Assembly (NCBI GenBank): GCA_938014345.1
Contig: CALLSM010000036.1
Coordinates: forward strand, 1,672 to 65,671
DNA length: 64,000 nucleotides
Origin: an uncultured Succinatimonas sp.
Lineage (GTDB): Bacteria; Pseudomonadota; Gammaproteobacteria; Enterobacterales; Succinivibrionaceae
Direction: 5' to 3'
Positions 2,300 to 64,000 of this stretch are shown here, piece after piece. The notes beneath the pieces were generated by a model. It was given only the letters and a program-made list of their open reading frames with translations. It searched no databases and had not been told where the DNA came from. Every line of letters begins with the position of its first letter. The first letter of the stretch is position 1. Made by a program: the position numbers and the translations under genes.

Positions 2300-2324
2300 G
2301 GTGTTAATTTCCTTTTTTATCTAA

Positions 2325-4053: not shown

Positions 4054-4062
4054 AGTTTTGAT

Positions 4063-4869: not shown

Positions 4870-5430
4870 ATGAAACTTAATTCGGAAATCATATCGTGGA
4901 AGCTTAGAGATGCAGGGCGTCTGGCAATTAAGACCGAGGCTTTAGAGTCTGAAAGTGAGGCTCAGCCTGCAAGCCCATCACAGCCGTTTTTAAATCAAAT
5001 TGAGTCTACAAATTTACCTAAAGAACCAGAAATAGCTGTAAATGATCGTTCAATCTTAAATGTAAGTTCTACCACTCAGGCTATGGTCGATGGGGTGGCG
5101 GTGGACCCAAATTTAAGCCGTTTTATCACTGAAGACGGTACTGTTATCAATATTCATGCTAATTGGCATTTGCGCAAACAGCGTGCCGATATTTACCTAA
5201 GCCCCACAAGTAAAGTCGATTATTTGCCGGCTTTAAAAGAATTTTTAGCTAAATTTAAGTTAAAGATTTTAGCTTATGAGCCGCAATATCATTATTTGCC
5301 TAGTGATATTTTGCTTTTAGATGAAAAGGATAAGGTCGAGCAGGGTACAGTTATCTATTTACAGCAGGGAAAGAGAGCAGTGTGGCAATTTCTAAAATCC
5401 AATTTGCCTGAGGTATTTGCACATGTCTAA
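4870..5430 (+). CDS. Hypothetical protein; its position upstream of rimI is consistent with a DNA polymerase III psi subunit (HolD)-like gene
   Basis: The 186-aa ORF overlaps the rimI start by 14 nt. In many gammaproteobacteria holD precedes rimI. Sequence similarity to HolD was not convincing by eye. Confidence 0.4.
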   Translation: MKLNSEIISWKLRDAGRLAIKTEALESESEAQPASPSQPFLNQIESTNLPKEPEIAVNDRSILNVSSTTQAMVDGVAVDPNLSRFITEDGTVINIHANWHLRKQRADIYLSPTSKVDYLPALKEFLAKFKLKILAYEPQYHYLPSDILLLDEKDKVEQGTVIYLQQGKRAVWQFLKSNLPEVFAHV

Positions 5431-5914
5431 TCCGGATTTTTTTATCACCAGAGTTTTGACTGATGAGGATAAGAGCTTAGCTTCACAGTTAGAGTTAGTT
5501 GAAATACGCACGCAAAAAAATGCTTGGACCTTGCAATCTCTGATCGAGTGTTTTGATAAGTCTTATAAAATCATAGGCTTATTTGCCGGTACGCGACTTA
5601 TAGGTTTTGCGGTGATCTATGCTACTAAATTTAGTACCGATATTTTGACTATCGGTGTAGATCCTGATTATCAGGGACGCAAATTAGGCACGAAGCTGTT
5701 ACGGGCGACTTTAGATGAGGCTTTACAGTGTGGAGCTGAGGAGTGTTTTTTAGAAGTGAGACGCTCAAATATTGTGGCCCAAAGCCTTTATAAGAAGTTT
5801 GGCTTTGAAATTACTGGTGTGCGTAAGGACTATTATGCCCCCTATGGCGATGAAGTTGCGGAAGATGCTTTTACTATGCATTTGCAGAATATAAAAGACG
5901 CTCTTGCAATATAG
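5417..5914 (+). CDS. rimI: Ribosomal-protein-alanine N-acetyltransferase (GNAT)
   Basis: The GNAT acetyl-CoA motif is present (GVDPDYQGRKLGTKLL ... LEVRRSNIVAQSLYKKFGF). Length is 165 aa. Confidence 0.8.
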   Translation: MHMSNPDFFITRVLTDEDKSLASQLELVEIRTQKNAWTLQSLIECFDKSYKIIGLFAGTRLIGFAVIYATKFSTDILTIGVDPDYQGRKLGTKLLRATLDEALQCGAEECFLEVRRSNIVAQSLYKKFGFEITGVRKDYYAPYGDEVAEDAFTMHLQNIKDALAI

Positions 5915-6157
5915 TGGTGCAAAATCTGCTTTGGTATGTCAGCACTATTTAGCACTTAATTCCATGCTGAATGGAACGCTTTTCTTGTACGTATAAATTA
6001 GACTATAGTTTGTGATCTGCATGGCGTTTTAGCTAAACGCTTTTATTTGATCCTAAAAGATTTGTTGACTAAATATATAATGTAACAGTGTCAGAACACT
6101 CTGTCCGTTAACAATAATTAGATCCTTATGTAGGATTGTTAAATACAGGAAAATGCA

Positions 6158-7684
6158 ATGCTGATTGGTATTCCACAAGAGAGTCTTCAGGGCGAAACAA
6201 GAGTTGCTGCAACTCCTGATACCGTCGGAAAACTCCTAAAGCTCGGCTTTGAAGTAGCAGTTCAAAGCAGTGCTGGCGCAAAAGCCAGTTTCACCGATGA
6301 AGCCTATGCGGCTGCCGGTGCTAAGGTTGTAGACAAGGACGTCTGGAACAGCGACATCATTTTCAAGGTCAATGCTCCTAATGATGCAGAAATTAAGTTG
6401 ATGAAGGAAGGCCAGATTTTGGTCAGCTTCATTCGTCCTGCTCAAAACAAAGAATTAGTGGACAAGCTCAACGCTAAGAAAGTAACTGTAATGGCCATGG
6501 ACATGGTACCGCGTATTTCTCGCGCTCAGTCCTTAGATGCTCTGTCATCTACTGCCAATATCAGTGGTTACCGTGCTGTAGTTGAGGCTGCCCATGAGTT
6601 CGGCCGCTTCTTCACCGGTCAGGTTACTGCCGCAGGTAAAGTTCCTCCGGCAAAGGTCTTAGTTATCGGTGCTGGTGTAGCAGGTCTTGCCGCTATTGGT
6701 ACTGCTCACTCCTTAGGTGCTATTGTTCGTGCTTTTGATACTCGTTTAGAGGTAGCCGATCAGATTAAGTCTATGGGTGGTGAGTTCTTAAAGCTAGACT
6801 TCAAGGAGGACGGTGGTTCTTCTGATGGTTATGCTAAGACCATGAGTGATGAGTTCATCAAAGCCGAGATGGAGCTGTTTGCTCAGCAGGCTAAGGATGT
6901 CGATATCATCATCACTACCGCCGCGATTCCTGGCAAGCCGTCACCGCGTCTTATCACTAAGGAAATGGTTGCTAGCATGAAGGCAGGCTCCGTGATCGTT
7001 GATCTCGCCGCTGCTGGTGGTGGTAACTGCGAATGCACTCAGGCCGGTAAGGTTATTACTACCGACAATGGTGTTAAGATCATCGGTTACACCGATTTAG
7101 CCGCTCGTCTGCCGGCTCAGTCTTCTCAGCTGTATGCTACTAACCTCGTCAACCTCAGCAAGCTCTTATGTAAGAATAAGGACGGCGTTGCTCTAATCGA
7201 CTTTGAGGACGTAGTCTTACGCAATATGACCGTAACTCGTGACGGTGAGATCACCTTCCCGCCGCCAAAGATCAGCGTTTCTGCAGCTCCGGCTGCTAAG
7301 CCTGCCGCAGCTCCGGTTAAGATTGAACAGAAGAAAGTCTCTCCGGTCTTAAAATATGGTTGCTTAGGCGTTCTTTTAGCCTTGATGTTACTCATCGGCT
7401 TATTTGCTCCGGCTAAGTTCCTGCCGCATTTCACCGTCTTCGTCTTAGCCTGCGTTGTCGGTTACTATGTTGTTTGGAACGTTACCCATTCACTCCACAC
7501 ACCTCTGATGTCTGTAACTAACGCTATTTCCGGCATTATTGTTGTTGGTGCCATGTTGCAGTTCACAGGCGGTGTCTTTACTGGCATTTTGGCCTTTATC
7601 GGCGTCTTGATTGCTTCCATTAACATTTTCGGTGGCTTTGCGGTAACTCGTCGTATGCTGGCTATGTTCAGAAAGCAGAAATAA
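6158..7684 (+). CDS. pntA: NAD(P) transhydrogenase subunit alpha
   Basis: The N-terminus MLIGIPQE...RVAATPDTV is PntA-like, the NAD-binding motif GAGVAGLAA is present, and there is a C-terminal transmembrane region. Length is 508 aa. Confidence 0.93.
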
Positions 7685-7705: not shown

Positions 7706-9103
7706 ATGACTTCATTAGGTACTGTGGCCTATATTCTAGCTGCGCTGTTATTCATTATTGCGTTAGCTGGCCTTTCTAAACAAGAAACTGCTAAGTACGG
7801 CTGTCTGTCCGGTATGGTTGGTATGGCTTTAGCCCTCTTCACCACCTTCTTCTCCGTCGGCAGCACTGTCGGTATCGTCCTCATCATCTTAGCTATGGTG
7901 ATCGGTGCTGGTGTTGGTATCTTTGTTGCCCGTCGCGTACAGATGACTCAGATGCCGGAGTTGATTGCCTGCTTACACAGCTTCGTTGGTTTAGCCGCTG
8001 TTTTAGTTGGTTATAACAGCTTCATCGAGTCTGATCCTAGCGTTATGACCTCTGCTGAGAACAATATTCACTTAGTTGAGGTATTCTTAGGCGTCTTCAT
8101 CGGTGCTGTAACCTTTACCGGTTCCATCGTTGCTTATGGTAAGCTCAATGGCACCTATAAGTATCGTATCTTCAAGTCCGCTCCGTTACAGTTACCGGGC
8201 GGTCACTTCTGGAACTTAGCTGCTATTGTTCTCTCCTTCCTGCTCATGGTTTGGTTCATGTCAGGTGATCATGGCTCCATGACAGCCTTGATCTTAATGA
8301 CCCTGATCGCTTTAGCCTTTGGTATCAACCTTGTTGCCGCCATCGGTGGTGCTGATATGCCGGTTGTTATCTCCATGCTGAACTCCTATTCAGGTTGGGC
8401 TGCCGCCGCTTCAGGCTTCATGCTCGATAACGATCTTCTGATCGTTACCGGTGCTTTAGTAGGTTCTTCAGGTGCTATTCTGTCCTACATTATGTGTAAG
8501 GCTATGAACCGCTCCTTCATCTCTGTTATCGCCGGTGGCTTCGGTAATGCTCCGGTCGCTAAGAAGGATGAGGAAGTTGGTGAGTATCACGAGATGAAGG
8601 CTAACGAGGTTGCTGAGTTACTGAAGGGTTCTTCTTCTGTAATCATCACCCCGGGCTATGGTATGGCTGTAGCTCAGGCTCAGAATGCTGTTGCCTCCAT
8701 GACCGAGAAGCTTCAGGCTTTAGGTGTTAAGGTACGTTTCGCCATTCACCCGGTAGCAGGTCGTCTGCCTGGCCATATGAACGTTCTCTTAGCTGAGGCT
8801 AAAGTTCCGTACGACATCGTCTTTGAGATGGATGAGATTAACGATGAGTTTGAGGAGACCGATACTGTATTAGTTATCGGTGCTAACGATACCGTTAACC
8901 CGGCTGCTGCTGAAGATCCGACCTCTCCTATCGCCGGTATGCCGGTCTTAGAGGTTTGGAAGGCTAAGAACGTCATCATCTTCAAGCGTTCTATGAATAC
9001 CGGTTATGCTGGCGTTCAGAACCCGCTCTTCTTCAAGGACAATTCCTACATGTGCTTCGGCGATGCTAAGAAGACTGTTGAAGAGATCGTCAATAATATC
9101 TAA
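7706..9103 (+). CDS. pntB: NAD(P) transhydrogenase subunit beta
   Basis: There is an N-terminal membrane domain and a C-terminal NADP(H)-binding domain ([10 protein letters not shown] ... [15 protein letters not shown]). Length is 465 aa. Confidence 0.93.
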
Positions 9104-9120
9104 TAGCTATTGCTATTAAA

Positions 9121-9150
9121 GAAAAGGCCCGCAACTTGCGGGCCTTTTTT
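9121..9150. terminator. Rho-independent bidirectional terminator between pntB and crr
   Basis: The hairpin ggcccgcaacttgcgggcc is flanked by an A run and a T run. Confidence 0.8.
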
Positions 9151-9162
9151 GATCTTAAAACC

Positions 9163-9696
9163 TTATTTGTCATCGTGATTGAGAGCTACCCATGCACAGG
9201 CAGTTTCGCCGGCTGTAGCTTTACCTGAGGCTACGGCAACTTTAGCGATATTAGCTGAGGATTTGACCACAATGATGGAGGTGACGGTAGATTTTAAGGT
9301 GGCATTAGCGCGGCTCATGTCAAATTTAATAATGACATCGCCTTTTTTCACCTTATCGCCATTTTTGACCACCGCCTCAAAGCCATCTCCGGCAAAGCGT
9401 TTAGTGCCAACACCGCAGGTGACATAGATTTCCACCCCACATTGAGAGCGGATAGCAAAGGCATTATTTGAGGATAATAAACGCGAGATGATACCGTCGC
9501 AGGGGGCTAAAATTTCCTGATTTTCAGGAATAATGGCAATACCATCGCCGACAATGCACTCGGAGATCACCAGATCCGGAACATCTGCTAAGGGCAATAA
9601 TGAGCCACTTACAGGTGCAATCAGTTCTAAATCGGCATCCTCTTTAGCAACAGTCACAGCGTCATGCTTGCCAAAAAGCATGGATAAAATTCCCAT
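9163..9696 (-). CDS. crr: PTS glucose-specific EIIA component
   Basis: The 177-aa protein aligns with Crr (IIAPVSG...EDVPD.V.SE.IVGDGIAI.P ... active-site His region). Confidence 0.9.
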   Translation of the reverse strand: MGILSMLFGKHDAVTVAKEDADLELIAPVSGSLLPLADVPDLVISECIVGDGIAIIPENQEILAPCDGIISRLLSSNNAFAIRSQCGVEIYVTCGVGTKRFAGDGFEAVVKNGDKVKKGDVIIKFDMSRANATLKSTVTSIIVVKSSANIAKVAVASGKATAGETACAWVALNHDDK

Positions 9697-9793
9697 AAAA
9701 ACCCCTATTTAATGAATGAAAGGCAGGCACAAAAAATGCCTAAGTTAATTTATATTTTAGGCATTTTTTACATAAAAATCTAAATTAGACGAT

Positions 9794-11455
9794 TTAGTGC
9801 ATATTTAAGCGATTGATGAGCGCGGCTAATTCCTTGCCAGTAAAGAGATTCATAACCTCGTTATAGAGCTCAAGATCAAAAGCAGGCTCTAGCTGCGTGT
9901 CTAAATTGAGTTGTTCCACAGCATTGCGCATGCGGCCTATTTGATAGCCATCGACGGCATAATAGGTAACACCGAGCTTATAGAAGAAAGGTAAAAGCTC
10001 AATGCGTGGAGCATAGCGACCGGCCACACCGATAGGAATATGCGCCTCGTGGGCAGCCTTAGCGGCCATGACAATCATCTTAGCTAAAGCCGGGGTAAAG
10101 GCAATGTCAGCGGGGCGGGGTGCTGAGGCGTATTCAGCAAGAGAACTTGTGCCGATAATGATCATCGAACAATCGACGGAGATACCCTGAGCGCATAATA
10201 CTGAGGACGGGGTTTCACTCATAAAGCCTACCTCATAACTGCCATGCTGTATGCCGAGCTCTGAGAGTTCATGACAGCAGGAAATGGCTAGATTTTTAAG
10301 GTAGAGCGCCTCAGAGAGTCTAGTTATGAGCGGGAAGATAATGCGGATATTGCGACCACAGGCGGCACGCAAGAGGGCGCGGATCTCCTTCTTTAAAAGG
10401 CGCGAGCCTACTTCGGCACCATAACCTTTAAGCGGCCCCTGATCGTCTAAATGCACTCTAAATAGCGGCTTTTTATCATCAGCAAAGTCAAAGGTACGAG
10501 CGGTGATCGGCGCTGTCGGTGAGATGGGTTTAAAGAGCTTAGCAAAAGCTTCAGTCATCTCCTCTTCAGTAGGTTCATGATCATAACCTAAGAATAAAAA
10601 TTCCGAGCGTAAGAGCCCTAGACCATGGGTGGTATAGAGCGAATTACCATTGAGCTGACGGATAGCACCGACGGCACCGGCGATGGTGACATTGATGAGT
10701 GAGTCATCGGTGGTGACCTCATGGAAGAGGTCAAGCTTTTCAAGCATGGCCTTAGCGGTATTTTCCTCAGGATCGACCACCAAGACGCCGTTATTGCCAT
10801 CTACGAGCAATTTAGTGCCGTTTTCAATGGAGGTTGCCCCTTGCACACCGAAGATAGCCGGAATGCCTAATTCACGTAAGACTACACCTAAATGGCCTGA
10901 ATCGCGGCCAAACTCTAAGACTACAGCCTGTACCTTTTCGACATCTAAGGATAAAAAGAGCGCTGGGGAGAGATTTTCCGCCACAATGACGGCTTTTTCT
11001 TTGAGATTAGGTAAAACTACGGTGGAGTCATCGCGCTTGTGCAAAGAGCCGATAAATTCTAAGAGGAGGGATTTAATCTCCTTATTATCATTTAAAAGCT
11101 CCGGATCTTTACTGTGGTTGAAACTTTCAAGCTTGCCTAAAAGTACGCTCTTACACGCGGTGATGGCGGAGCAACCGCGATTGATGAGGTCGATAATATC
11201 GTGGTTATTACCTTTGTCGGTGAGAAAACCGGCAGCGGCGCCGAAGAGATCACGGATGCGATCTTGACCTGGATTTACAATCTGACGCAGACGGTTGGCA
11301 AATTGTGTGCTTTTCTTTTGGAATTTGTCGATTTCCTCCTGAGGATCGATGGCATAGAGCTTATCCTCAGTATTAAATCTTCCGGGTCTAGAAACGGTAA
11401 CTGCCGGAGCAAAGCCTACTCCAGCGGCAATGGAGACTCCCGACAAAGTGTACAT
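9794..11455 (-). CDS. ptsI: Phosphoenolpyruvate-protein phosphotransferase (PTS enzyme I), divergent
   Basis: The N-terminus LSGVSIAAGVGFAPAVTV resembles EI ISGILASPGIAFGKALLL. A phosphohistidine loop (GRDSGHLGVVLRELGIPAIFG) and a C-terminal PEP-utilising TIM barrel are present. The gene lies immediately upstream of crr. Confidence 0.8.
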   Translation of the reverse strand: MYTLSGVSIAAGVGFAPAVTVSRPGRFNTEDKLYAIDPQEEIDKFQKKSTQFANRLRQIVNPGQDRIRDLFGAAAGFLTDKGNNHDIIDLINRGCSAITACKSVLLGKLESFNHSKDPELLNDNKEIKSLLLEFIGSLHKRDDSTVVLPNLKEKAVIVAENLSPALFLSLDVEKVQAVVLEFGRDSGHLGVVLRELGIPAIFGVQGATSIENGTKLLVDGNNGVLVVDPEENTAKAMLEKLDLFHEVTTDDSLINVTIAGAVGAIRQLNGNSLYTTHGLGLLRSEFLFLGYDHEPTEEEMTEAFAKLFKPISPTAPITARTFDFADDKKPLFRVHLDDQGPLKGYGAEVGSRLLKKEIRALLRAACGRNIRIIFPLITRLSEALYLKNLAISCCHELSELGIQHGSYEVGFMSETPSSVLCAQGISVDCSMIIIGTSSLAEYASAPRPADIAFTPALAKMIVMAAKAAHEAHIPIGVAGRYAPRIELLPFFYKLGVTYYAVDGYQIGRMRNAVEQLNLDTQLEPAFDLELYNEVMNLFTGKELAALINRLNMH

Positions 11456-51868: not shown

Positions 51869-53638
51869 ATGAAAGTAGTAGCTTTGGTAGGTTGCCCTAA
51901 TGTTGGTAAATCTACCTTATTTAATCGCCTAACTAAGACTCGTGATGCTCTAGTGGCGGACTTTCCCGGACTTACCCGCGATCGCAAATATGGTCGTGCC
52001 CTTTATGACGGTCGTGAATATGTCGTTATCGATACTGGTGGTATTGCCGAGGATAACGTTGAACAGCCTCAGGAGCTTACTGAGCGCATGACCTCTCAGG
52101 CCTTACAGGCTATTGATGAGTGCGATTTAGTTTTATTCATGGTAGATGCCCGTGCCGGCATCATGCCAGGTGATTATAGCGTTGCCGATTATATTCGCCG
52201 TGCTAATAAGAAATGCGCGGTCATTGCCAATAAGGTTGATGGCCTCGATCCTGAAACTGCTGGTGCTGAGTTCTATGCTTTAGGCTTAGGCGAGGTCTAT
52301 CAGACAGCCGTCGTCCACGGCCGTGGTGTCAGCATCATGTTAGAAGAGGTAATTGCGCCTCTCTTACGTGAAGAAGGTCCTTTAGAGTCCGATTTGCCTG
52401 AGAGCGATGACGAGGACAATGAAGGTGAGATTTGGGAAAAGGGCTATGAGTTCTTAGACAATGTGCCTGCGGACAAGGAAGGTGGTGGCTTTGACTGGCA
52501 TGCCTTCCGTCAAGAGCAGCGTGCCCGCGAGCATGGTCTCAATCCCGATGGTACTCCGATGGAGATGGCGATCGAGCGCCCGGTAGTACCGTTCTCGGAC
52601 TTACCTATCAAGTTTGCTATTGTCGGTAAGCCTAATGTCGGTAAATCTACCTTAACTAATCGCCTTTTAGGTGAGGATCGCGTGATTGTAGCCGATTTCC
52701 CGGGTACTACGCGTGATTCTATCTATATTCCTTTAGAGCGTAATGGCAAGAAATATATAGTTATCGATACAGCTGGTGTCCGCAAGCGCCGTAAGGTCTC
52801 CGAGGCGGTAGAGAAGTTCTCTATCGTTAAGACCCTTAAGGCTATTGAGGATTGCAACGTCGCCTTATTAGTTATCGATGCGCGTGCCCACATCAGCGAT
52901 CAGGATTTATCCCTGTTAGGCTTTATTATCGATTCAGGGCGTAGTTTAGTTATCGCTGTGAATAAATGGGATGGCTTAGATCAGAGCATTAAAGACGATA
53001 TCCGTATGGAGCTCAATCAGCGTTTAGGTTTCGTCGATTTTGCCCGCGTTCACTTTATTTCCGCTTTACACGGAACTGGTGTTGGCAATCTCTTCGATTC
53101 TATCGATGAGGCTTATGTCTCTGCAACTAATCGTCATTCTTCCTCTACCTTAAACCGTATTTTACGTGCCGCTATTGCAGAGCACGAGCCGCCGATTTCC
53201 GGTGGTCGCCGCATTAAGATGAAGTATGCTCACGCCGGTGGTTATAACCCGCCACGCATCATCATCCACGGCAATAAGGTCTCTAAGGTTCCGGATGCTT
53301 ATAAGCGCTATATCATCAATTGCTATCGCAAGGCCTTAAATATCATGGGTACTCCGGTAATTGTTGATTTTAGAGAGGGTGAGAACCCTTATGCTAATGA
53401 AAAGCCGGCGCAGAAGCGTCAGACTCAATCACAGATGCGTGAGGAGCGTCGTCAAAAGAGCAACGAGCGCATGTGGGAGAAGGCGGAAAAGCGTTCTGAT
53501 CGTGAAGAGAAGAAGGCTATCGCTAAGGCGCAAAAAGAAGGTACAGGCTTAGTTTTAGCTCATCGTCCGAAGAAGAGCGCCTCTAGTGTGAAAAAGCCTA
53601 AGCGCACAGCCGGTAAGGCTATTGCCCGTAATAAATAA
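51869..53638 (+). CDS. der: Ribosome-biogenesis GTPase Der (EngA) with an acidic inter-domain insert and a basic C-terminal tail
   Basis: Two G domains ([14 protein letters not shown] and [14 protein letters not shown]) and a KH-like domain are present. Length is 589 aa against about 490 aa in E. coli. Confidence 0.9.
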
Positions 53639-53644
53639 AAAAAG

Positions 53645-53672
53645 AAATCCCGCAGCCGTGCGGGATTTTTTT
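53645..53672. terminator. Bidirectional rho-independent terminator after der
   Basis: The hairpin aaatcccgcagccgtgcgggattt is flanked by a T run and an A run. Confidence 0.8.
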
Positions 53673-53693
53673 ATCTATAAAAAATTTTTTTAA

Positions 53694-53828
53694 CTAAGCG
53701 CTTTCTTGAATAAAGAAGACACCGCGACGGGACTGCAGACGGGTCTTAGCGTTTTTCATAAAAATTCTTTTTCTGCGGGCACGGGTTACCGCGGTATGGT
53801 TCTTAAGCTTTGAGGCTGAACGTTTCAT
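53694..53828 (-). CDS. Unannotated small ORF encoding a 44-aa, highly basic peptide with similarity to ribosomal protein bL34
   Basis: The peptide is MKRSASKLKNHTAVTRARRKRIFMKNAKTRLQSRRGVFFIQESA. An AGGAG lies 14 nt upstream of the ATG. It is too short to appear in the ORF track. Confidence 0.4.
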   Translation of the reverse strand: MKRSASKLKNHTAVTRARRKRIFMKNAKTRLQSRRGVFFIQESA

Positions 53829-54201
53829 TTTTTATTATTTTCTCCTAGATTAAGCCCATCGATTATAGCAAAGATAGTTTTATAAATACCCCTTCATTAT
53901 GCGATCTAAATTCTAGTTTTGGGAAAAATTTGCGTTAAATTTGAGTAATTTCCCTAAATTAGCTCAGTACGAGCTAGGGCGTCTGTACCCTTAGCGCTAA
54001 AAGCGGGGCTCTTTTAGCTAAAAATTTGGGAAAATTTGCTAATTTATGCGTTTTTTTGAAAAAAAGTTCTTCTTTTTAGTAAGAAAGCTTAAGCCTTCAT
54101 TATTAGATGCTGAGTAACAATACATTTATGATAAAATACGCACAACTCTTTGCCGTAAGGCACTCCTTTCTATTTGCATTGAATTAGCAGGATTCCAATC
54201 T

Positions 54202-57200
54202 ATGATTATCATGCGTGGTTCGTCGGCCGTTTCATCGTTCCGAATTGAAAAATTACTAGAAGCCTTTGCATCCGAGGGCATCAAGGTTAAATCTATTTGC
54301 GCTAACTTCATCCACTTAGCTGATGTTGATGGCGATTTAACCGCAGAGGAAAAGGTAGTTTTAGAGAAAATCTTAAGCTACGGTCCGGCCTCTGAAAGTG
54401 TTAATGAGGATGGTGATTTATTCTTCGTCGTACCCCGTATTGGTACCATTTCTCCGTGGGCCTCTAAGGCTACCGATATCGCTCACAACTGCGGTTTAAC
54501 TAAGATTAGACGTGTTGAGCGCGGTATTGCTTGGCATATTGTATCTGCCTCTGGTGCTAAGTTTAACGCCGATGAGCGCAAGGCTATTGCCTCTCACATC
54601 TATGACCGCATGATGGAGAATGTTTTAGACAGCATCGATGCAGGTGCCGCTTTATTTGAAAAGCAGACTCCCAAGCCTTTTAATACTGTCGCTTTAACCA
54701 CCGGTGGTATGGATGCTCTTAAGGAAGCTAACGTCAATTTAGGTTTAGCTTTATCTGAGCCTGAAATGGCCTATTTAATGGATTCCTTTAAGGATTTAGG
54801 CCGCGATCCTACTGATATCGAGCTTTATATGTTCGCTCAGATGAACTCTGAGCACTGCCGTCACAAGGTCTTCAATGCCGCATGGGAAATCGACGGTAAG
54901 GCTGAGGAGAGCTCCTTATTTGGCATGATCCGCAATACCTATAAGACCCATCCTGAGTATGTATTATCCGCCTATAAGGATAATGCTGCTGTTATGGAAG
55001 GCTCTAAGGCTGGTCGTTTCTACCCTAATCCTAATCATGAGTGGGCCTATCACGAAGAAGATATGCCGATCCTCATGAAGGTTGAGACCCACAATCACCC
55101 GACTGCTATCTCGCCGTTCCCGGGCGCTGCCACAGGTTCTGGTGGTGAAATCCGTGATGAGGGTGCTACCGGTGTTGGTTCTCGTCCTAAGGCCGGTGTC
55201 TGCGGCTTTACTGTATCTAATCTGCGTATCCCGGGTGCTGAGCGCGAGTGGGAGCAGGATTTTGGTAAGCCCGATCGCTTAGCCTCAGCTTTACAGATCA
55301 TGATCGAGGGCCCTTTAGGTGCCGCCTCCTTCAATAACGAATTTGGTCGTCCTAACCTCTGCGGTTATTTCCGTACCTATGAGGAAGAGGTCGAGTCCTT
55401 CAATGGCCGTGAGGTGCGTGGTTATCACAAGCCCATTATGCTTGCCGGTGGTTGGGGTAATATCCGCCGTCAGCACATCAATAAAGATCACATCGATCCG
55501 GGCGCAAAGCTCATCGTTTTAGGTGGTCCGGCTATGAATATCGGTTTAGGTGGTGGCGCTGCTTCTTCCATGAACTCCGGTGCCTCTTCTGCCGATTTAG
55601 ACTTCGCTTCTGTACAGCGTGGTAATCCGGAAATGCAGCGTCGCTGTCAGGAAGTTATCGATGCCTGCTGGCAGTTAGGTGATGACAATCCTATCATGTT
55701 CATTCACGACGTCGGTGCTGGCGGTCTGTCTAATGCTATGCCTGAATTAGTGTCCGACGGTGGTGTGGGTGGCCGCTTTAACCTGCGTGCTATCCCGAAT
55801 GATGAGCCGGGTATGTCCCCGTTACAGATTTGGTGTAACGAGTCTCAGGAGCGTTATGTTTTAGCCGTAATGCCGGAGCGTTTTGACGTCTTTGAGAACT
55901 TCTGTAAGCGCGAGCGTGCTCAGTATGCCGTCATCGGTGAGGCCACTGCCGAGCGTCGTGTAGTCTTAGAGGATCCGTACTTTGGCAATAAGCCTATCGA
56001 CTTACCTTTAGACATTCTCTTAGGCAAGCCGCCGCGTGTTCACAAGCAGGTGGTCTCAGCTAAGCAGAATTCCCCTGAGTTCAAATCTGAGGGTATTGCC
56101 GTTAAAGAGGCCTGCGAGCGCGTTTTACGTTTACCGTCTGTAGCTGAGAAGACCTTCTTAATCACCATTGGTGACCGTTCTGTTACAGGCTCTGTTGCCC
56201 GTGATCAGATGGTAGGCCCGTGGCAGGTTCCAGTTTCCGACGTCGCCGTTACTGCCGCTTCCTATGACAGCTATCATGGTGAGGCCGGTGCTATGGGTGA
56301 GAGAACTCCGGTAGCCTTATTAAATCACGCCGCTTCCGTACGTTTAGCTGTAGCTGAGGCTGTAACTAATATTGCCGCAGCCGATATTGGCGAACTCAAT
56401 CGCGTCAAGCTCTCAGCTAACTGGATGGCTCCTAATGGCCACCCCGGTGAGGATGCCGGTTTATTTGAGGCTGTACGTACCTTAGGTATGGAAATCTGCC
56501 CTGAGTTAGGTATCACTGTACCTGTCGGTAAGGATTCCATGTCTATGAAGACCACCTGGGAGCAAGATGGTAAGACCCGTACCGTTACCGCCCCGATGTC
56601 CCTCATCGTTACCGCCTTTGCCCGTGTTGAAGATGTAAGACGCACCTTAACTCCGCAGTTACGTACCGATAAGGGCGATACCACCCTCATCTATGTTGAT
56701 TTAGGTGAGAGACAAAATCGCTTAGGTGGCTCTGCCTTAGCTCAGGTTTATCGTCAGTTAGGCAACAAGTGCGCTGACTTAGATCACCCGGTAAGACTTA
56801 AGGGCTTATTCGATGCCGTACAGTTCTTAAATCGTAAGGGCAAGCTTTTAGCCTATCACGATATCTCCGATGGTGGTTTATTCACTACTGTCTGTGAGAT
56901 GGCCTTCGCCGGTCACACCGGTGTTGAGGTGAAGATGGACGTTTTAGGGGAGGATAACCTTGGCGTACTCTTCTCTGAGGAGCCGGGCGTCGTCATGCAG
57001 GTTTTAACCGAGGATGTTGAGACTGTCTTAAATATTCTCTCCGGTCACGGTTTAGCTAACTGCGCCTTCGCTGTCGGTGGCTTAAGAAATGATGATCGCA
57101 TTGTCTTTAGCCGTGATGGTGTTGATGTTGTCAATGAGGAGCGTCGTCACTTCAGAACTATTTGGGCTGAGACTACCTATCAGATGCAGAAACTGCGTGA

Positions 57201-58098
57201 TAATCCGCAGTGCGCTACCGAGGAGTTCTTAGCTAAGGATGAGTCTGACGATAAGGGCTTATTCGTAAATCTCAGCTATGATCTCAATGAGGATATTGCC
57301 GCTCCGTATATCGCTCGCGGTGTCAATCCGAAGATCGCCATCTTACGTGAGCAGGGTGTTAACTCTCAAAGCGAAATGGCAGCCGCCTTCAATCGTGCCG
57401 GCTTTAACTGTATCGACGTACATATGAGCGATGTGCTCTCAGGCGCCGTCTCCTTAGACGACTTCAAGGGCTTTGCCGCTTGCGGTGGCTTCTCTTATGG
57501 TGACGTTTTAGGTGCCGGTGAAGGTTGGGCTAAGTCGGTGCTCTTTAACTCTAAGGCCGCTGAGGAGTTCTCACGCTTCTTCAACCGTAAGGACACCTTT
57601 GCTTTAGGTGTTTGCAACGGCTGTCAGATGATGTCTACTTTAAGTAGCCTCATCCCCGGTGCTGAGAATTGGCCGCGCTTTGTAACTAATAGATCTGAGC
57701 GCTTTGAGGCCCGTTTTGTTGAAGTTGAGATCACTAAGAGCCCGTCCATTCTCTTTGCTAATATGCAAGGCTCCATGATGCCTATCGTCGTGTCTCACGG
57801 TGAGGGTCGTGCTGAGTTTAGAGATGCCGGTCATTTAGAGGCTCTGAAGGCTCAGAACCTTGTAGCGGCTCGTTATGTCGATCATAACGGTAAGCCTACT
57901 GAGGTTTATCCTTTAAATCCTAATGGTTCACCTGAGGGTATCACCGCTGTTACCACTCCTGATGGTCGCTTCACCGTCATGATGCCGCACCCTGAGCGTG
58001 TAATGCGTGCTATCTGCAACTCTTGGCATCCGGATAATTGGCTCGAGGACAGCCCTTGGGTCCGCTTATTCCGCAATGCCCGCGTCTTTGTAGACTAA
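54202..58098 (+). CDS. purL: Phosphoribosylformylglycinamidine synthase (large PurL)
   Basis: The 1298-aa protein is collinear with E. coli PurL (RGS.A.S.FR..KLL ... C-terminal glutaminase domain). Confidence 0.95.
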
Positions 58099-58122
58099 TT
58101 TAGGTCTTAAAGCTTAAAAATG

Positions 58123-58151
58123 AATGCCCACTTTAGCGTGGGCATTTTCGT
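58123..58151 (+). terminator. Rho-independent terminator after purL
   Basis: The hairpin atgcccactttagcgtgggcat is followed by tttcgtc. Confidence 0.7.
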
Positions 58152-58256
58152 CATTATGAGGGTGTTTTCACAAGTAAGAGCTACTTTTGAAAACATCATT
58201 TACATATACTGTTATTAAAGCCTTTTTAGGCATAATACATGCGCACAGGATAAGTT

Positions 58257-61200
58257 ATGAGCGAAATGCCAATTGCAATGAGAAATCTTGAAGCGGAGCT
58301 TATGAGTCATAAAGTCTCCGGTCTTTTAAAGATTTACCTCTTAAAATCTTTTTTTAATAATCTTTTTGTTGAGGTTAACTGTCAGGGCAATACCAATAAT
58401 ACCGGCAATAATGGTGCCGGTAAGACCTCGCTTTTAAGCTTGATTCCGATTTTCTATGGTGCTGAGCCTAATACTGTGGTCTCCCGTGAGGCGGGGAAAT
58501 CTTCCTTTGTGCAGTATTACTTACCCGCTAATGCCTCATTATTAGCCTTTGAGTATCTGCATTTAGGTGAAAAACGCTGTGTGCTTTTATATAGCCATGA
58601 GTCACAGCTTTACTATCGTTTTGTCGCTTGCAGTGGCAAGGAATTATTCTCTAAAGAGAATATGGAGGCGCATGCTGACTTTAACGATACCCGTGAGTGG
58701 CTTAAAGCCTTTGTCGCTAAAAAATATCCGACTAGTATTCAGCTCAATTCCACTATCGACTATCGCACCATTATTCAAAATGGCCGACAGCGCCTACTTA
58801 AAAATCGCCAGCAAAATATCGCCTTAGCACGTGAGTATTCTTTATGTTCAAGTGCCAAAGAAATGCAACATATGGGCGCTTTGACTGCGATTATGATCCG
58901 CAATAATCGCCTCTTAGAGCAATTGCGTATCATGCTTGTCGATTGCTATTTAGGCAATAGCATGCATATTGAAGTGCCAATTGTCGATGCGCAGAGCCTT
59001 AATAGTCAAACGCTACGGGCTATTTTAGAGGTGAAAAAGCAAGAGCCGAATTTACGTGCCGCGATTGCTAAAAGATCAAAGCTCAATGAGGATTTAGGCA
59101 AGGTTAAAGCTTGCTATAAGTATGTCTGCCGCTATCAGGACAGCATGCAAGAGCGGCGTGAGGTTTTAAAGCGCGAGCTTGAGACTTTTACGCAGAATTT
59201 AGAGCTTCTCAATGAGAGTTTTGAGCACAAGCGTCAGCATTTAGAACAGCAAAAATCGAGCTTAGACATTAAAGCTCAGCAATTAGCACAGGCTATTGAG
59301 GCTTTAGAGAAGAAGCGGGCTGAGTATGATGAGCTTGATATCAATAATGTGATCGCCCGTTATGATAATTTAGCCTCTTATCAGGAAGGAGAGCGCAGTG
59401 CTAAGGCGCATTATGACAGTATCAAGGCTTCACAAGATAAGCTTATCTCTGACTTTGACAGTAAGCGCCTGCTTCTTAATAAAGAGCATCAAAAGCATGT
59501 TGAGGACATCAATCAGGTATTAAAAAGCCTTGATGAGAAATTAAAGGCTTTGCAAGGCGAGCTTAATGATAAGAAAAATGCCGCGCGTTTAGCCTGTGAG
59601 CAGGAGCAAGAGGCCCGACGTCAAGAGCGTAATACGCATAAGCAAGATCTCAATGACAAGATCTTAGCTTTAAGCTCAAAAATTACTGAGCTCAAAAAGC
59701 CTACCGAGCTTGAAAGCAAGAAATTACAAGGCTTTGAAGCGACTATTGAGAGCTTAGAGGACAAGCTTAGTAAAAAACAAAAAGACTATATTGCTGTAAA
59801 TAAGCTTTTAGGGGCAAAAGACAAAGCTTTAGTTTCACTTAAAGATAAGCTTGAAAAAACTCAAAATAGAATCACTAAATTGTCTTTACATATTGAGGAT
59901 TTAAAGAGCAAGCTTAATCCGCAAAGTGGCTCCTTACAGGCTTTTTTAGAAGAGGCCCGTCCTTTATGGCGTGAGGATTTAGGTAAGATCATAAATCCAG
60001 AGCTGTTAAAGCGTGTCGATTTAAATCCCGCACTGCAGTCTAAAGAGCAGAGCCTCTATGGCTTAAGCCTTGATTATGGCGCAATTCAAACTCCTGAATA
60101 TCTTCTCAATATCGAGGAGCTCAAACGCATTTTAGAAGAAAAGCTTTTAGAGCTTAAGAGTGAGGATGAGAGTAAGGAGCGCCTCTTAGCTGATCACAAT
60201 AAGGCCGACAGAGAGTATAAAGAGCAAAAGGCTTTGCAATTGCAATTAGCCTCGGACTTAGAGAGTCTGCAAGGCGAGATTACGGCGCAAAAAAATGCCT
60301 TTAAGAGCTATAAGATGGAAGTTGAGCGCGAGAGCAATCTGCGCGCTGATAAGAGCTTAGAGGATTTAGTGGCTTTAAAACAGCAATTAGCTACTTTTGA
60401 TGTTAAGACTAAATCTCTTTTAAGTGAGATTAAACAAGAGCATTTAAATCATGAATTAGAGATTGCCGCCATCTTTGCACAAAAAGAAGAGCCGATTTTA
60501 GCGCATAAGCAATTAAAGGAAGATGAGCTCTCTTTTGAGAGCAATAATTATAAAAAGCGCAATGAGCAGTTAAATCAGGCTTGTGATGCCGCTTTAAGAC
60601 AAGAGGGTTTAGATCCTAAGATCGTGCGTGAGGCTCGCGATACTTATGAAAAGGCTCATGAAGAGGTTGAAAGTATTCAAAAAACTGAGCAATTAGTTAC
60701 TGAATACAAGGCCTGGGACAGCACACAGTGGCGGAGCTTTGATAAATTAAATGATGACCTGCGACAAAGCGAGCTGCAGCTTAATAACGTCAAGCATGCA
60801 TTACAGCAAGAGCAGGAGCAATTCAATCAAAAGTCGAATGTCATTAAGGTTAAATTAAAAGAATTAAGACGCGCTGATAAATATGCTGAGAGTGAGTATC
60901 AGACTTTAGAGAGTTGTCTGCAAAATGTTCTGCAGGCGGAAATTGATAGCATGAGTGCTACAATTGAAGCAGTTGATATCGATTATGTCGAGGTCGCCTT
61001 AGAGCTCAATAAGCTCGCCTCAGATCTCGTACGCAGTGCTAAAGCCTCACGTAAAGCTTTAGAAAATGCGGTTATATCCGTGAATAATATTCTGCAGGCA
61101 AGCCATAGCGATAATGTCATCGCTAAATCCTGGGAGGAGCTCTTAGCACATCGCCGCGAGAGCTTTGATGAAAGCGCTTATTATTCACAGGAATTTTATC

Positions 61201-61991
61201 TCTCCTGTGTTGATGATTTAGTGAAGCTTTTAGATGAGATTATCCCGCTTAATGAGCTTACGGTAATTGAGAGTGTGCGCACGGCTTCACAGAGCTTTAT
61301 GAATTTTTATGTAAGCTTAGAGGCCTTCAATAAGCGCGTGCAGAGCCTCTCTCGTGAGTTTGGTAAGCAGGTAGCTTTAGATAATCCTTTTAAGAGCTTA
61401 AGCGATATTCAAATTGAATTGCTCTCAAAAGTTGAGGAGCAGGATCTGTGGACACCTTTGCGCAACTTTGCCGATAAATTTACCGCCTATCAAGAGCAAG
61501 GGGGACAGGGGGCCCCGTCTCTTGATTTCTTAACGACCTTTGAGACTTTAAACTCAGTGCTCAAAAACTGCCATATTTCGGAGAATTTAGAGTCCTTAGT
61601 GTCATTGCGCATTTCATTGCGTGAAAATGGTCGTCAGGTGCAGATTAGATCCGATAGCGATCTCTCAGGTCTTTCAAGCCGCGGTATTTCTAAGCTCGCG
61701 ATTATCGTCATCTTCTGCGGTTTAACGCGTTATCTCTGTCAAGATCAGAATGTGCGTATTCATTGGCCCTTAGATGAATTAGGTGAGCTACATGAGGATA
61801 ATGTGGTCTTACTCTTTGAGCTTATGAATCGCAATAATATCGTACTCTTCTGTGCACAGCCTAATCCGTCGCCGTCTTTATTGCAGTACTTTGATACTAG
61901 CAATTATATCGACAAGAATAAGGGCGTGAAATTATGTGTGGATGCTAATATTTCCGCAGATAATCCGCTGTTAAGAATTTCTCAGGAGTAA
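58257..61991 (+). CDS. SMC-family ATPase of the MukB/MksB/JetC type (Walker A head, about 900 aa coiled coil, C-terminal signature and Walker B head)
   Basis: The N-terminus LLKIYLLKSFFNNLFVEVNCQGNTNNTGNNGAGKTSLL parallels the MukB head [33 protein letters not shown]. The C-terminus carries LSGLSSRGISKLAIIVIFCGL and IHWPLDELGEL. Confidence 0.8.
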   Translation: MSEMPIAMRNLEAELMSHKVSGLLKIYLLKSFFNNLFVEVNCQGNTNNTGNNGAGKTSLLSLIPIFYGAEPNTVVSREAGKSSFVQYYLPANASLLAFEYLHLGEKRCVLLYSHESQLYYRFVACSGKELFSKENMEAHADFNDTREWLKAFVAKKYPTSIQLNSTIDYRTIIQNGRQRLLKNRQQNIALAREYSLCSSAKEMQHMGALTAIMIRNNRLLEQLRIMLVDCYLGNSMHIEVPIVDAQSLNSQTLRAILEVKKQEPNLRAAIAKRSKLNEDLGKVKACYKYVCRYQDSMQERREVLKRELETFTQNLELLNESFEHKRQHLEQQKSSLDIKAQQLAQAIEALEKKRAEYDELDINNVIARYDNLASYQEGERSAKAHYDSIKASQDKLISDFDSKRLLLNKEHQKHVEDINQVLKSLDEKLKALQGELNDKKNAARLACEQEQEARRQERNTHKQDLNDKILALSSKITELKKPTELESKKLQGFEATIESLEDKLSKKQKDYIAVNKLLGAKDKALVSLKDKLEKTQNRITKLSLHIEDLKSKLNPQSGSLQAFLEEARPLWREDLGKIINPELLKRVDLNPALQSKEQSLYGLSLDYGAIQTPEYLLNIEELKRILEEKLLELKSEDESKERLLADHNKADREYKEQKALQLQLASDLESLQGEITAQKNAFKSYKMEVERESNLRADKSLEDLVALKQQLATFDVKTKSLLSEIKQEHLNHELEIAAIFAQKEEPILAHKQLKEDELSFESNNYKKRNEQLNQACDAALRQEGLDPKIVREARDTYEKAHEEVESIQKTEQLVTEYKAWDSTQWRSFDKLNDDLRQSELQLNNVKHALQQEQEQFNQKSNVIKVKLKELRRADKYAESEYQTLESCLQNVLQAEIDSMSATIEAVDIDYVEVALELNKLASDLVRSAKASRKALENAVISVNNILQASHSDNVIAKSWEELLAHRRESFDESAYYSQEFYLSCVDDLVKLLDEIIPLNELTVIESVRTASQSFMNFYVSLEAFNKRVQSLSREFGKQVALDNPFKSLSDIQIELLSKVEEQDLWTPLRNFADKFTAYQEQGGQGAPSLDFLTTFETLNSVLKNCHISENLESLVSLRISLRENGRQVQIRSDSDLSGLSSRGISKLAIIVIFCGLTRYLCQDQNVRIHWPLDELGELHEDNVVLLFELMNRNNIVLFCAQPNPSPSLLQYFDTSNYIDKNKGVKLCVDANISADNPLLRISQE

Positions 61992-62623
61992 TGAGCATGG
62001 CCGAGCGTTTTGAGTTATGTGTGGAAAAGCTCTTAGATGGTGAGGTTATCTGTGCCCTCACCGATAGCGATTTATTTGCTTATTTAGAGGATGAAGAACA
62101 GTTACAGAACGTCAATATGTGGCTGTTAAAGCTCCATCGGCGGGTGGCGCAAACTGCCGATAAGCGGGGTTTTTATTGCGTCTATAGCGATCTTAATGAT
62201 GATAGACGCAAGCGCTTAGTGCGCTTGCAATTTGAAGAGATTAGCCGCGATTTTGTAGGCTTAGTAGAATGGCTTCGTTTATGCCGTTCCATCTCACATG
62301 AGGCTCGTCCTATTGAAGCTGGCGATATCGTGCGCGAATCGGAGCTTTTAGCGGCGATTGAAAACTCGCAGACGCTAGCGGTGCAGCTTGAAGGTATTGC
62401 CGACAAATTTCAGCGCGCGAAAAACTCCACGATCAGCAATCGCCTGCGCTCGATTTTAGGCTATCTTGAAAATCAGGGCTATTTGCGCTTAAACAATACC
62501 TCAGGCTCAGTCTATACTGCCACCGCTAAATGGTCGCTTGTATACGATATGCTAGAATTTATCGCCTCCTGTGAGCTTCTAGATGACAATCAGGATACGG
62601 CAATACAGACGGAGCTCTTCTAA
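61991..62623 (+). CDS. Operon partner 1 (210 aa); possible KITE (MksE/JetB-like) subunit
   Basis: The start overlaps the upstream stop (taATGa) and the stop overlaps the next start. The size and an N-terminal LL.GEVI...D.DLF.YL motif are reminiscent of DUF4194, but the assignment is weak. Confidence 0.6.
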   Translation: MSMAERFELCVEKLLDGEVICALTDSDLFAYLEDEEQLQNVNMWLLKLHRRVAQTADKRGFYCVYSDLNDDRRKRLVRLQFEEISRDFVGLVEWLRLCRSISHEARPIEAGDIVRESELLAAIENSQTLAVQLEGIADKFQRAKNSTISNRLRSILGYLENQGYLRLNNTSGSVYTATAKWSLVYDMLEFIASCELLDDNQDTAIQTELF

Positions 62624-63876
62624 TGGCACGTAATGGCTCTCCGAAAACCGCTTTTAATCTTTTAAGCCGTAATTTTGAGCTTATAGAGCAGGCCTGTTAT
62701 GAAAATAACGGCGATATGCCATTAGGCGAGGACAATGCCTCTATTGAGGCCTTAGTGCGCAATCGCTTAGCTTATTATATCGATGATGAATTATGCGTGC
62801 GCGTGCATTCAAAGGTAAGAATGCTCGTCGATCATGTCTGCAGTCGCTTTCGCTTTCGTGAAAAACACGGTGAATTTGCCGCCCTTATCGATGCCTTAGA
62901 ATATGCTTTAGAGAGCTTTCATCGCGCGAAATTAAAGCCGCATGGGGATAATTATCAATTAGCCTTAGATGAGGTGCGTGAGGTGGTTTTAGATCTTACT
63001 GAGCTTCTAAGTGAGACGGTAAGCATGTATAACCATTTCGTTTTAGACGATTTCACCACAGCCTACGATCTCGATGAACGCATTTTCCAAACACAGCGCT
63101 GTAAAAACGAATTAGTGCAGATTAACGAGATCTTCATGCAGCTAAAGGTCGAGCAATTATTAGTGTGGGCAAGCTCTGATCCTATAGTAGATAATCTTTT
63201 GATGAAGATCTTCAAGCGTAAGCTTGATCGCTCTTTAAGTGAACTTAATATTGTCAATCAAAAGCTCATTGAGAGATTAGATAAATTGCACTTTGAAAAG
63301 CAGGTGCAAAGACGCAATCTGCTTTTAGATAGCTTTGCAAAAAAATATAAGGATAAGCTGCAATATACGCTAAGTGCAAAGCTGGTATCTTTTCCGCCGT
63401 CTTTAGCTTTAGCCGCTAGGCAAAATGTCTGCGCTTATGCTGATTTAGCTACTCCTAAGGAGAGTTATCAGGAGACTTTAGCTAAACTAGCCTCGCAAGT
63501 TAAAGCTAAAGTACAAAAACAAGCTAGTCCACAAGAGGAGAGCCCTGTTGCTGTCGTGGATGTGCGTGAGGAGAAGCTTGAAGTTAAGATCGATCTTGTC
63601 ATGCAGTATTTAGGCTATCTCTTTGAAGCGGTACTTAGCGATGATTATAAAGAAGATATTTCAGCCGTGGCCTGTTATAAGGCTTTTTGTGCAAAAGAGC
63701 CGCTCTTAGCTGAGAGAATTAAGCTTCAAGATTGGCTGTTTTTGGTAATGACTGAGAGCATGCATAAAAAGCGCATGATAAGACGCCATGCTCTTTATGA
63801 AGAGTGGGGCTTTTATGATGAAGTCTTTAAGGACACAGCCTTAGTTGGGGATATTGTATTTAAAAAGCTCAGGTAG
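62623..63876 (+). CDS. Operon partner 2 (417 aa); possible kleisin (MksF/JetA-like) subunit, unknown function
   Basis: The gene is translationally coupled (taATGg). The protein is helical and acidic with no recognisable catalytic motif. Its size is compatible with a kleisin. Confidence 0.55.
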   Translation: MARNGSPKTAFNLLSRNFELIEQACYENNGDMPLGEDNASIEALVRNRLAYYIDDELCVRVHSKVRMLVDHVCSRFRFREKHGEFAALIDALEYALESFHRAKLKPHGDNYQLALDEVREVVLDLTELLSETVSMYNHFVLDDFTTAYDLDERIFQTQRCKNELVQINEIFMQLKVEQLLVWASSDPIVDNLLMKIFKRKLDRSLSELNIVNQKLIERLDKLHFEKQVQRRNLLLDSFAKKYKDKLQYTLSAKLVSFPPSLALAARQNVCAYADLATPKESYQETLAKLASQVKAKVQKQASPQEESPVAVVDVREEKLEVKIDLVMQYLGYLFEAVLSDDYKEDISAVACYKAFCAKEPLLAERIKLQDWLFLVMTESMHKKRMIRRHALYEEWGFYDEVFKDTALVGDIVFKKLR

Positions 63877-63879
63877 AGT

Positions 63880-64000
63880 ATGGATAAAAGCCTCATCTTA
63901 TTTGCCCAAAAGCTCGTCAATAAACCTCTAGCTAGTATCAGATACAGTCAGAGTTTGAAAGCTTTATGTCAGGAAGTCGGGCTTGCACATAGGCTTATCG
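63880..64000 (+). CDS. Fourth gene of the SMC-like operon; 3' end truncated by the window
   Basis: An ATG lies 4 nt after the previous stop (MDKSLILFAQKLVNKPLASIRYSQSLKALCQEVGLAHRL...). The frame is open to the window end. Confidence 0.4.
   Translation, partial: MDKSLILFAQKLVNKPLASIRYSQSLKALCQEVGLAHRLI

Follow-up and report, generated by a model that had tools for sequence, protein, structure and literature searches.

A four-gene cassette for a putative SMC-nuclease complex in an uncultured Succinatimonas sp., a candidate Wadjet-like lineage of permuted gene order

The window analysed here, i.e. the whole stretch of 64,000 nucleotides (nt) taken from contig CALLSM010000036.1 of an uncultured Succinatimonas sp. 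(assembly GCA_938014345.1), ends in a cassette of four genes, hereafter g1 to g4, that encode an SMC (structural maintenance of chromosomes)-like ATPase, a KITE subunit, a predicted kleisin and a putative Toprim nuclease. Since all four parts of a Wadjet system are represented and the catalytic residues of both the ATPase and the Toprim domain are intact, the best supported interpretation is a DNA sensor that is driven by ATP and acts together with a Toprim cutter against plasmids or other foreign DNA. The cassette probably specifies an SMC-nuclease machine of four subunits that is organised as in Wadjet and belongs to a separate, unclassified lineage. An earlier note on this DNA, made from the sequence alone, had proposed a rearranged or new member of the SMC-based plasmid-restriction or condensin-like systems or, failing that, an unrelated SMC-headed complex; the former is supported by the four-part Wadjet composition in permuted order. 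What is new here would be a scattered and so far unrecognised Wadjet-like lineage with a permuted gene order, a minimal nuclease and plasmid-borne copies.

The four genes and their products

Three of the genes lie entirely within the window, all on the plus strand: g1 at 58257-61991 (1244 amino acids, aa), g2 at 61991-62623 (210 aa) and g3 at 62623-63876 (417 aa). Stop and start codons overlap as ATGA at both the g1/g2 and g2/g3 junctions, and the list of open reading frames (ORFs) reproduces the coordinates, sizes, strand and overlaps first reported for these genes. The fourth gene begins with an ATG at 63880, 3 nt past the g3 stop, and its reading frame leaves the window after the first 40 codons (63880..64000, plus strand). 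Exact copies of the g3 sequence were located on 22 metagenome contigs, of which six were read, and g4 was completed from contigs that encode the same g3 protein as the window; the full gene (L001:11258-12130; loci and contigs are cited by number) encodes 290 aa, so that the sequence past 64000 called for by the earlier note is now available. Because these contigs show the operon ending at a convergent trpS-like gene, it comprises exactly four genes: the coupling originally described for at least four genes was found, with the number now fixed at four. This association is not due to chance, as the four genes recur together and in the same order in dozens of genomes. The g4 stop and the convergent trpS-like stop share 4 nt (L001:12127-12130, just past the window end), leaving no space for a terminator, and the two transcripts must therefore overlap.

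The product of g1 (58257..61991), a candidate equivalent of JetC/MksB, matches Pfam DUF3584 (PF12128) over its full length (residues 38-1215; E = 1.1e-139; 467.5 bits for a gathering cut-off of 31). Residue conservation was scored across 15 and 34 homologues, with a threshold of >=90% for the larger set. The Walker A motif or P-loop (G50-N-N-G-A-G-K56-T-S58; 58404..58430, plus strand) is invariant or at least 90% conserved in both sets, with G50, N52, G55, K56, T57 and S58 reaching >=90% across the 34 homologues. A signature-like motif, L-S-S1141-R-G1143 (61671..61685, plus strand), in which S1141 and G1143 are invariant, was aligned by hhalign with the LSTGE region of MukB, and the Walker B motif H-W-P-L-D1173-E1174, followed by a D-loop-like LGxL (61761..61778, plus strand), contains the invariant D1173 and E1174 that align with the MukB sequence fLDEaarL. 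The C-terminal head, Walker B included, is in register with E. coli MukB, a weak match obtained with a single-sequence template (hhalign E = 1e-3, probability 21%). The head motifs quoted initially (Walker A, signature and Walker B) are real in that the same residues are conserved in homologues and, together with the DUF3584 match, they support the description of the large protein as an SMC-like ABC ATPase.

The middle of g1, initially described as ca. 900 aa of coiled coil, resolves in composition profiles into two Pro/Gly-poor, E/K/Q/L-rich arms (residues ca. 250-553 and 615-1000) that are parted by a Pro/Gly-rich segment of about 60 aa. This segment (aa 555-613; 59919..60095, plus strand) forms a conservation peak between the helical arms and contains 9 Pro/Gly per ca. 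60 aa versus 0-2 per 50 aa in the arms, with L560, F563, L564, W571, L583, L584, L589 and P591 at least 90% conserved. It is designated as the putative hinge on the basis of its position rather than of a structure.

The 210-aa product of g2 (61991..62623, plus strand) passes the gathering score of Pfam MksE (PF21980; E = 8.8e-7; 29.9 bits for a cut-off of 27), which identifies it as the MksE/JetB-like KITE subunit that its size had suggested. All 18 g2 homologues match MksE (best E = 1e-11) and half of them (9/18) also match DUF4194, the JetB family. No match was obtained when the g2 profile was compared with PDB chains, nor when it was aligned to E. coli MukE using hhalign, the latter being a weak negative with a single-sequence template.

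For g3 (62623..63876, plus strand), the assignment comes from structure prediction. Its AlphaFold2 model, computed from a 62-sequence alignment (predicted local distance difference test score, pLDDT, of 84.9), is composed of an N-terminal winged helix (residues ca. 7-61), a helical bundle (63-244), a low-confidence linker (ca. 245-324) and a C-terminal winged helix (325-415), and the same domain layout has been described for the kleisins of Wadjet and MukBEF (bioRxiv 10.1101/2025.03.10.642339). When the model was compared with the PDB using Foldseek, MukF or JetA occupied ranks 1 to 13 (best E = 6e-5), with MukF as the best match, and the predicted structure identifies g3 as a kleisin of the MukF/JetA type, in agreement with the role first proposed for the 417-aa gene. 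By sequence, no relative was detected in Pfam (DUF3375 included), NCBIfam, PADLOC or the PDB; the PDB profile search gave insignificant helical matches, and hhalign found no match between the g3 profile and E. coli MukF, again a weak negative based on a single-sequence template. Word-indexed homologue searches returned 10 matches for g3 and a single one for g4. An exhaustive HMMER search of 1.84 billion representative proteins defined a g3 family of 111 clusters at 50% identity, all of ca. 400-430 aa, and no g3 homologue was found in phage genomes.

The complete g4 product matches Pfam DUF7281 (PF23947) over residues 97-283 (E = 2.5e-36; 125 bits for a cut-off of 27), as do all 24 of its homologues, and matches Pfam JetD_C weakly (E = 2e-3). 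Among these homologues, nine match TOP6A-Spo11_Toprim, eight JetD_C and three DUF2399, and the 11 PADLOC families matched by any of them are all JetD models, with weak scores (a few at E = 2e-6 to 1e-2). Residues E141-N142, R168-G169, D195-x-D197-x-x-G200 and Q272-E273 are invariant in the family; a glutamate together with a DxD motif is the metal-binding signature of Toprim domains. Using Foldseek, the AlphaFold2 model of g4 (pLDDT 86.3) retrieved TopoVI-A of M. mazei (E = 1e-4), JetD of P. aeruginosa (7til; 4e-4) and MksG of C. glutamicum (8b7f; 5e-3). Against the PDB, the single sequence matched nothing, and the one match of the profile, to a Spo11 Toprim domain (E = 0.17), fell short of the threshold. 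JetD and MksG, at ca. 360-380 aa, exceed this protein (ca. 290 aa) by roughly 90 aa. Its conserved residues and model indicate that g4 encodes a putative JetD/MksG/TopoVI-A-like Toprim nuclease partner, and the one gene that lay beyond view when the note was made, with its JetD_C matches and JetD/MksG structural matches, strengthens the Wadjet-like interpretation. On a low-coverage metagenome contig from the same species (L062:10019-10881), g4 is split into ORFs of 203 and 82 aa, owing either to a frameshift or nonsense mutation in this allele or to faulty assembly.

Gene order, distribution and genomic context

One genome per GTDB species was scanned with the g1 alignment, yielding 37 loci whose ORFs were profiled for g1 to g4. 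The closest loci, with 57% identity, belong to Succinatimonas and Succinivibrionaceae metagenome-assembled genomes (MAGs). All four genes occur in 26 species-representative loci and are in each case (26/26) arranged as g1-g2-g3-g4 on one strand, overlapping or abutting; no alternative order was seen among the loci examined. The hosts of these four-gene loci are Gammaproteobacteria (Succinivibrionaceae, Marinobacterium, Vibrio, Aliivibrio and Photobacterium) and Betaproteobacteria (Thiobacillus, Nitrosospira, Methyloversatilis, Sulfuritalea and Sideroxydans, among others). In Wadjet nomenclature the cassette reads C-B-A-D, which differs from types I to III where the order is A-B-C-D, with the kleisin first and the SMC third. 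The E. coli mukF-mukE-mukB order is opposite to that of g1-g2-g3, and the mks genes of C. glutamicum are ordered F-E-G-B. The departure from jetABCD and mksFEB pointed out in the earlier note is thereby borne out, being conserved family-wide and also on three plasmids (see below).

Four loci, in Pseudomonas profundi, P. saliphila and two MAGs, contain g1 to g3 but no g4 (L016:7703-13376, L017:7703-13379, L014:2447-8271 and L035:7277-13116), in parallel to MksBEF versus MksBEFG. In these, g1 is slightly bigger (1257-1312 aa) and, in L017, is split into ORFs of 761 and 479 aa. In the Pseudomonas loci of this three-gene type, the ORF located 5' of g1 resembles an outer-membrane porin by eye and is probably unrelated.

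Mobile copies also exist, with g1 homologues detected by tblastn on 31 plasmids of PLSDB. All four genes, arranged as in the genome loci, are carried by Acinetobacter indicus pB18-1, with a fourth gene annotated as 'DUF2399 domain-containing protein', by Marinobacter pMAQU02, with a RES toxin and helicases next to the cassette, and by Acinetobacter pACI-b25a (L064; NZ_CP026423.1; 40,249 bp, circular), where the cassette spans positions 1073-7547 between insertion sequence (IS) elements and a recombinase. In L051 (NZ_CP082174.1), positions 8025-8690 encode a 222-aa DUF3584 N-terminal remnant that is truncated by an IS630-family element and is 36% identical to residues 8-232 of g1; ca. 12 similar Enterobacteriaceae plasmids of 266-347 kb (Raoultella, Citrobacter, Enterobacter, Leclercia) bear a remnant of this type. 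In NCBI records, the products of the cassette are named 'ATP-binding protein', 'hypothetical protein', 'DUF7281' or 'DUF2399 domain-containing protein'.

Outside the Succinivibrionaceae the flanks of the cassette vary from locus to locus, even within the Vibrionaceae, and often contain defence or mobility genes. A BrxR/WYL regulator adjoins the cassette in 14 loci: a BrxR-type WYL regulator is divergent and upstream in 8/8 Vibrionaceae loci and adjoins two other loci, and a WYL-WCX regulator lies upstream on the same strand in four betaproteobacterial loci (for positions see L034-L044, ca. 8930-9870 on the minus strand; L048:3345-4193; L028:8917-9909). Genes for type I restriction-modification (RM) lie 3' of the cassette in Aliivibrio and Vibrio (L034, L036), and a type III RM system lies 5' of it in Thiobacillus (L026). 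SNF2 helicases are adjacent in L019 and L042, an island with a phage-type integrase in L049 and a transposase in L046.

In the Succinivibrionaceae, by contrast with the variable sites found elsewhere, the cassette always occupies the interval between purL and trpS (L001-L012), and no WYL regulator was found at these loci. It is present in 10/10 contig contexts shown for contigs with an identical purL, i.e. from the same species, and is syntenic in 4/4 related representative genomes (L009-L012). The note had asked whether the cassette is uniformly core; it is indeed fixed within the species and syntenic in four relatives, but it diverges fast and is mobile elsewhere. Between Succinivibrionaceae species, identity is 47-57% for g1, 59-68% for g2, 56-61% for g3 and 37-45% for g4, versus 84-93% for the flanking purL, trpS, iclR and dctP in the same comparisons. 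Such a resident and fast-diverging locus is consistent with evolution driven by conflict or with the exchange of alleles at a hotspot, the alternative being relaxed constraint; decay is argued against because the catalytic residues are conserved and the reading frames intact. Two other origins were considered and rejected, namely a recent horizontal transfer into this lineage, as GC content and GC at third codon positions (GC3) are within the host range, and a pseudogenised remnant, as the genes are intact in 9/10 contig contexts and the catalytic residues conserved. In a related 2.05-Mb Succinivibrio-like genome, an RVT_1 reverse-transcriptase fragment is found upstream of purL (L007:1-468) with the cassette site unchanged; there, the TRAP transporter is followed by sugar-acid genes and, downstream of these, by an IS66 transposase (L007:20287-21054).

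Relation to known systems and possible role

In type I Wadjet, a JetABC dimer of dimers (SMC, KITE and kleisin) senses small circular DNA and activates the Toprim nuclease JetD (PMC10586767), and only types I to III are recognised (PMC10586767; bioRxiv 10.1101/2025.03.10.642339). The cassette resembles Wadjet (JetABCD, also MksBEFG or EptABCD) in having a predicted SMC-like ATPase, a KITE protein, a kleisin and a Toprim protein with E and DxD residues, in the coupling of its genes and in the location of copies within defence islands and on plasmids. Besides gene order, it differs by its nuclease of ca. 290 aa (DUF7281) and by a kleisin devoid of DUF3375. For the window proteins g1 to g3, the only match to a PADLOC v2 Wadjet model was that of g1 to JetC1 (E = 0.028); g2 and g3 had none, nor had the g4 of this species, and none of the four proteins is covered by an NCBIfam model. 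The PADLOC analysis advised earlier, once run, gave nothing significant for the window proteins, with only weak JetC and JetD scores in the family; of the profiles suggested with it, DUF4194 is matched in the g2 family and JetD/DUF2399 in the g4 family, DUF3375 remaining unmatched by g3. Because operon order, recognition by the Wadjet hidden Markov models and kleisin and SMC family membership all fail to place it in the recognised types, the cassette is most likely a candidate fourth, unclassified Wadjet-like type.

With MukBEF of E. coli and MksBEF of P. aeruginosa, it would share the SMC-KITE-kleisin trio; the g3 model is closest to MukF, and the g1 C-terminal head aligns weakly in the register of MukB. 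Their operons, however, run kleisin-KITE-SMC without a nuclease, and MukBEF is a conserved core system whereas the cassette is patchy, mobile and fast-evolving. No match to Pfam MukB, MukF or MukE was found in the window proteins. TopoVI-A/Spo11 provides the best PDB match of the g4 model, with the Toprim E and DxD residues aligned, but the N-terminal domain of g4 lacks an invariant tyrosine (the residues invariant there are R76, E86, K87 and V93) and no TopoVI-B partner is present; g4 would be expected to act as a nuclease, like JetD, rather than as a topoisomerase. The partners turned out not to belong to unrelated housekeeping complexes, an outcome the note had allowed for, their homologies being to KITE, kleisin and Toprim proteins instead.

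From the characterised type I Wadjet, a model may be drawn of how the complex would assemble, extrude loops, choose its target and cleave it. Two g1 ATPases would dimerise at the hinge, and g3 would bridge their heads and dimerise via its N-terminal winged helix and helical bundle, with dimers of the g2 KITE binding the kleisin linker. The ATP-driven complex would then load on DNA and extrude or scan it until foreign, probably small circular, DNA is recognised and the g4 Toprim dimer is licensed to cut. In the Succinivibrionaceae lineage the system would have been resident for long, fixed between purL and trpS and fast-evolving as expected under conflict with mobile DNA.

Several points weigh against such a defence function. 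In this lineage it derives wholly from homology and context, and the SMC fold of g1 itself is proposed from motifs, layout and the weak hhalign match: JetC models score the g1 family weakly (E of ca. 0.014-0.03, with JetC3 at 3e-4 in 2/15 homologues), and no SMC head of the PDB was matched by g1, either as a single sequence (no hit) or as a family profile (coiled-coil noise). The coupling of nuclease and sensor may differ from that of JetD since g4 lacks some 90 aa, and the presence of the whole cassette on a 40-kb plasmid would be hard to reconcile with a system that cuts any small circular DNA, as type I Wadjet does. In the species studied, the housekeeping neighbours, the lack of a WYL regulator, the host-like GC and GC3 and the fixed state also fit a housekeeping role. 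Finally, the only experimental phenotype tied to DUF3584 that was found is cisplatin tolerance and motility in three Shewanella species, not plasmid restriction. Price et al. (bioRxiv 10.1101/072470) reported that three Shewanella species specifically require DUF3584 genes, together with two neighbouring cofit genes for hypothetical proteins, to resist cisplatin; for the cluster Sama_0592-0594, the phenotype was cisplatin sensitivity and motility, and the partners had no family in 2016. As regards a possible earlier description under an existing name, these authors did flag DUF3584 with two genes, but without a name or a link to Wadjet, and no description beyond theirs was found in the full-text literature, subscription-only papers being outside reach.

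These observations give some room, as a possible though rather unlikely alternative, to a chromosomal machine for DNA-damage tolerance or repair, in which the SMC-like and Toprim proteins would process crosslinked or stalled replication intermediates and whose function would be closer to that of Smc5/6, RecN or SbcCD than to defence. The Shewanella cluster, with the same Pfam family for its large ATPase and two adjacent partners, argues for it, as do the fixed housekeeping neighbourhood, the host-like composition and the 10/10 contexts of the species, and the WYL-WCX regulators beside some copies are similar to regulators that respond to DNA damage, such as PafBC and DriD. That cluster is, however, linked to the four-gene cassette by Pfam family alone, and repair genes are normally well conserved, whereas here identities of 37-68% stand against 84-93% for the flanks. 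Copies on plasmids and beside RM genes, integrases, transposases and BrxR fit defence better, and so large a protein set yielding a mere 111 clusters describes a rare and patchy family. An intermediate view, which we hold to be unlikely, is that of a fourth branch of MukBEF/Wadjet with a permuted gene order and a minimal Toprim nuclease that would have been domesticated for DNA-damage tolerance in some lineages (the Succinivibrionaceae clade, perhaps Shewanella) and would serve elsewhere as a mobile, WYL-regulated defence; if true, it would be a bacterial counterpart of the dual roles of eukaryotic Smc5/6 in repair and against episomes.

It is very improbable that the cassette is the main or back-up condensin of its host, substituting for MukBEF or MksBEF with g4 incidental, even though its trio is the parts list of a condensin, three-gene versions without Toprim exist in the Pseudomonas species and MAGs cited above, and no second SMC-sized gene occurs within the 64-kb window (which says little on the rest of the genome). 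In such a case the translational linkage of g4 and the family-wide invariance of its catalytic residues would be hard to account for, as would plasmid and defence-island copies and a divergence far faster than that of the flanks. Moreover, Vibrio, Aliivibrio and Photobacterium possess MukBEF and Betaproteobacteria possess Smc-ScpAB, and the cassette is present in all of these. Given the nuclease partner, the plasmid copies and the defence-island contexts, g1 is also unlikely to be the only MukB orthologue of the organism, the eventuality that the earlier note had set against its own proposal. Least probable of all would be a Lamassu-like or other SMC-like abortive-infection system in place of a Wadjet-like cutting sensor. 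Some g1 homologues do weakly match the PADLOC models of LmuB (best E = 4.6e-11) and AriA (best E = 1.7e-10), but these are just 5-6 of 15 (LmuB 5/15) and not the family as a whole; the Walker B glutamate is conserved in g1, no LmuA- or LmuC-type effector is present, and the KITE, MukF-like kleisin and JetD-like Toprim partners belong to the MukBEF/Wadjet branch.

Wadjet serves as the model of discrimination between self and foreign DNA by an SMC motor. With a kleisin of no detectable sequence similarity and an SMC of almost none, a fourth lineage would have stayed hidden from annotation, and since PADLOC v2 and NCBIfam miss the cassette, SMC-based immunity is probably under-counted in Proteobacteria, an under-counting that probably extends to large resistance-type Acinetobacter plasmids. 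The shorter nuclease and small hinge would offer a minimal version for finding which features of JetABCD are essential and, if the same cassette is involved, the Shewanella cisplatin phenotype would connect tolerance of DNA damage with a Wadjet-like machine. The fixed yet fast-evolving state in Succinivibrionaceae, abundant in human and animal guts, would make a case of either domestication or arms race that can be tested with existing metagenomes.

Operon boundaries and neighbouring sequence

Upstream, a hairpin of 9 bp (AATGCCCAC-tttagc-GTGGGCATT; 58123..58146, plus strand) follows the purL stop at 58098, where the earlier note had placed a purL terminator ahead of the operon. It is likely to be this terminator and to delimit the operon upstream; in the terminator scan its score came from the minus strand, and the plus-strand T-run is weaker. 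An AT-rich spacer of 110 nt precedes g1, with an AGGA ca. 10 nt 5' of its ATG. A promoter scan of 58000-64000 remained at chance level and an Rfam search of 53000-64000 detected no element. Downstream, the metagenome contigs show, beyond g4 and the convergent trpS-like gene, an IclR regulator and a TRAP transporter.

Further upstream, the spacer between der and purL (53639-54201) is unusually long (560 bp), and some contig annotations place a 44-aa ORF there on the minus strand. The der/EngA GTPase gene (51869-53638) encodes 589 aa, the usual EngA being ca. 100 aa shorter; its two GTPase domains are separated by an acidic insertion, and its C-terminal tail of ca. 90 aa is rich in Lys and Arg.

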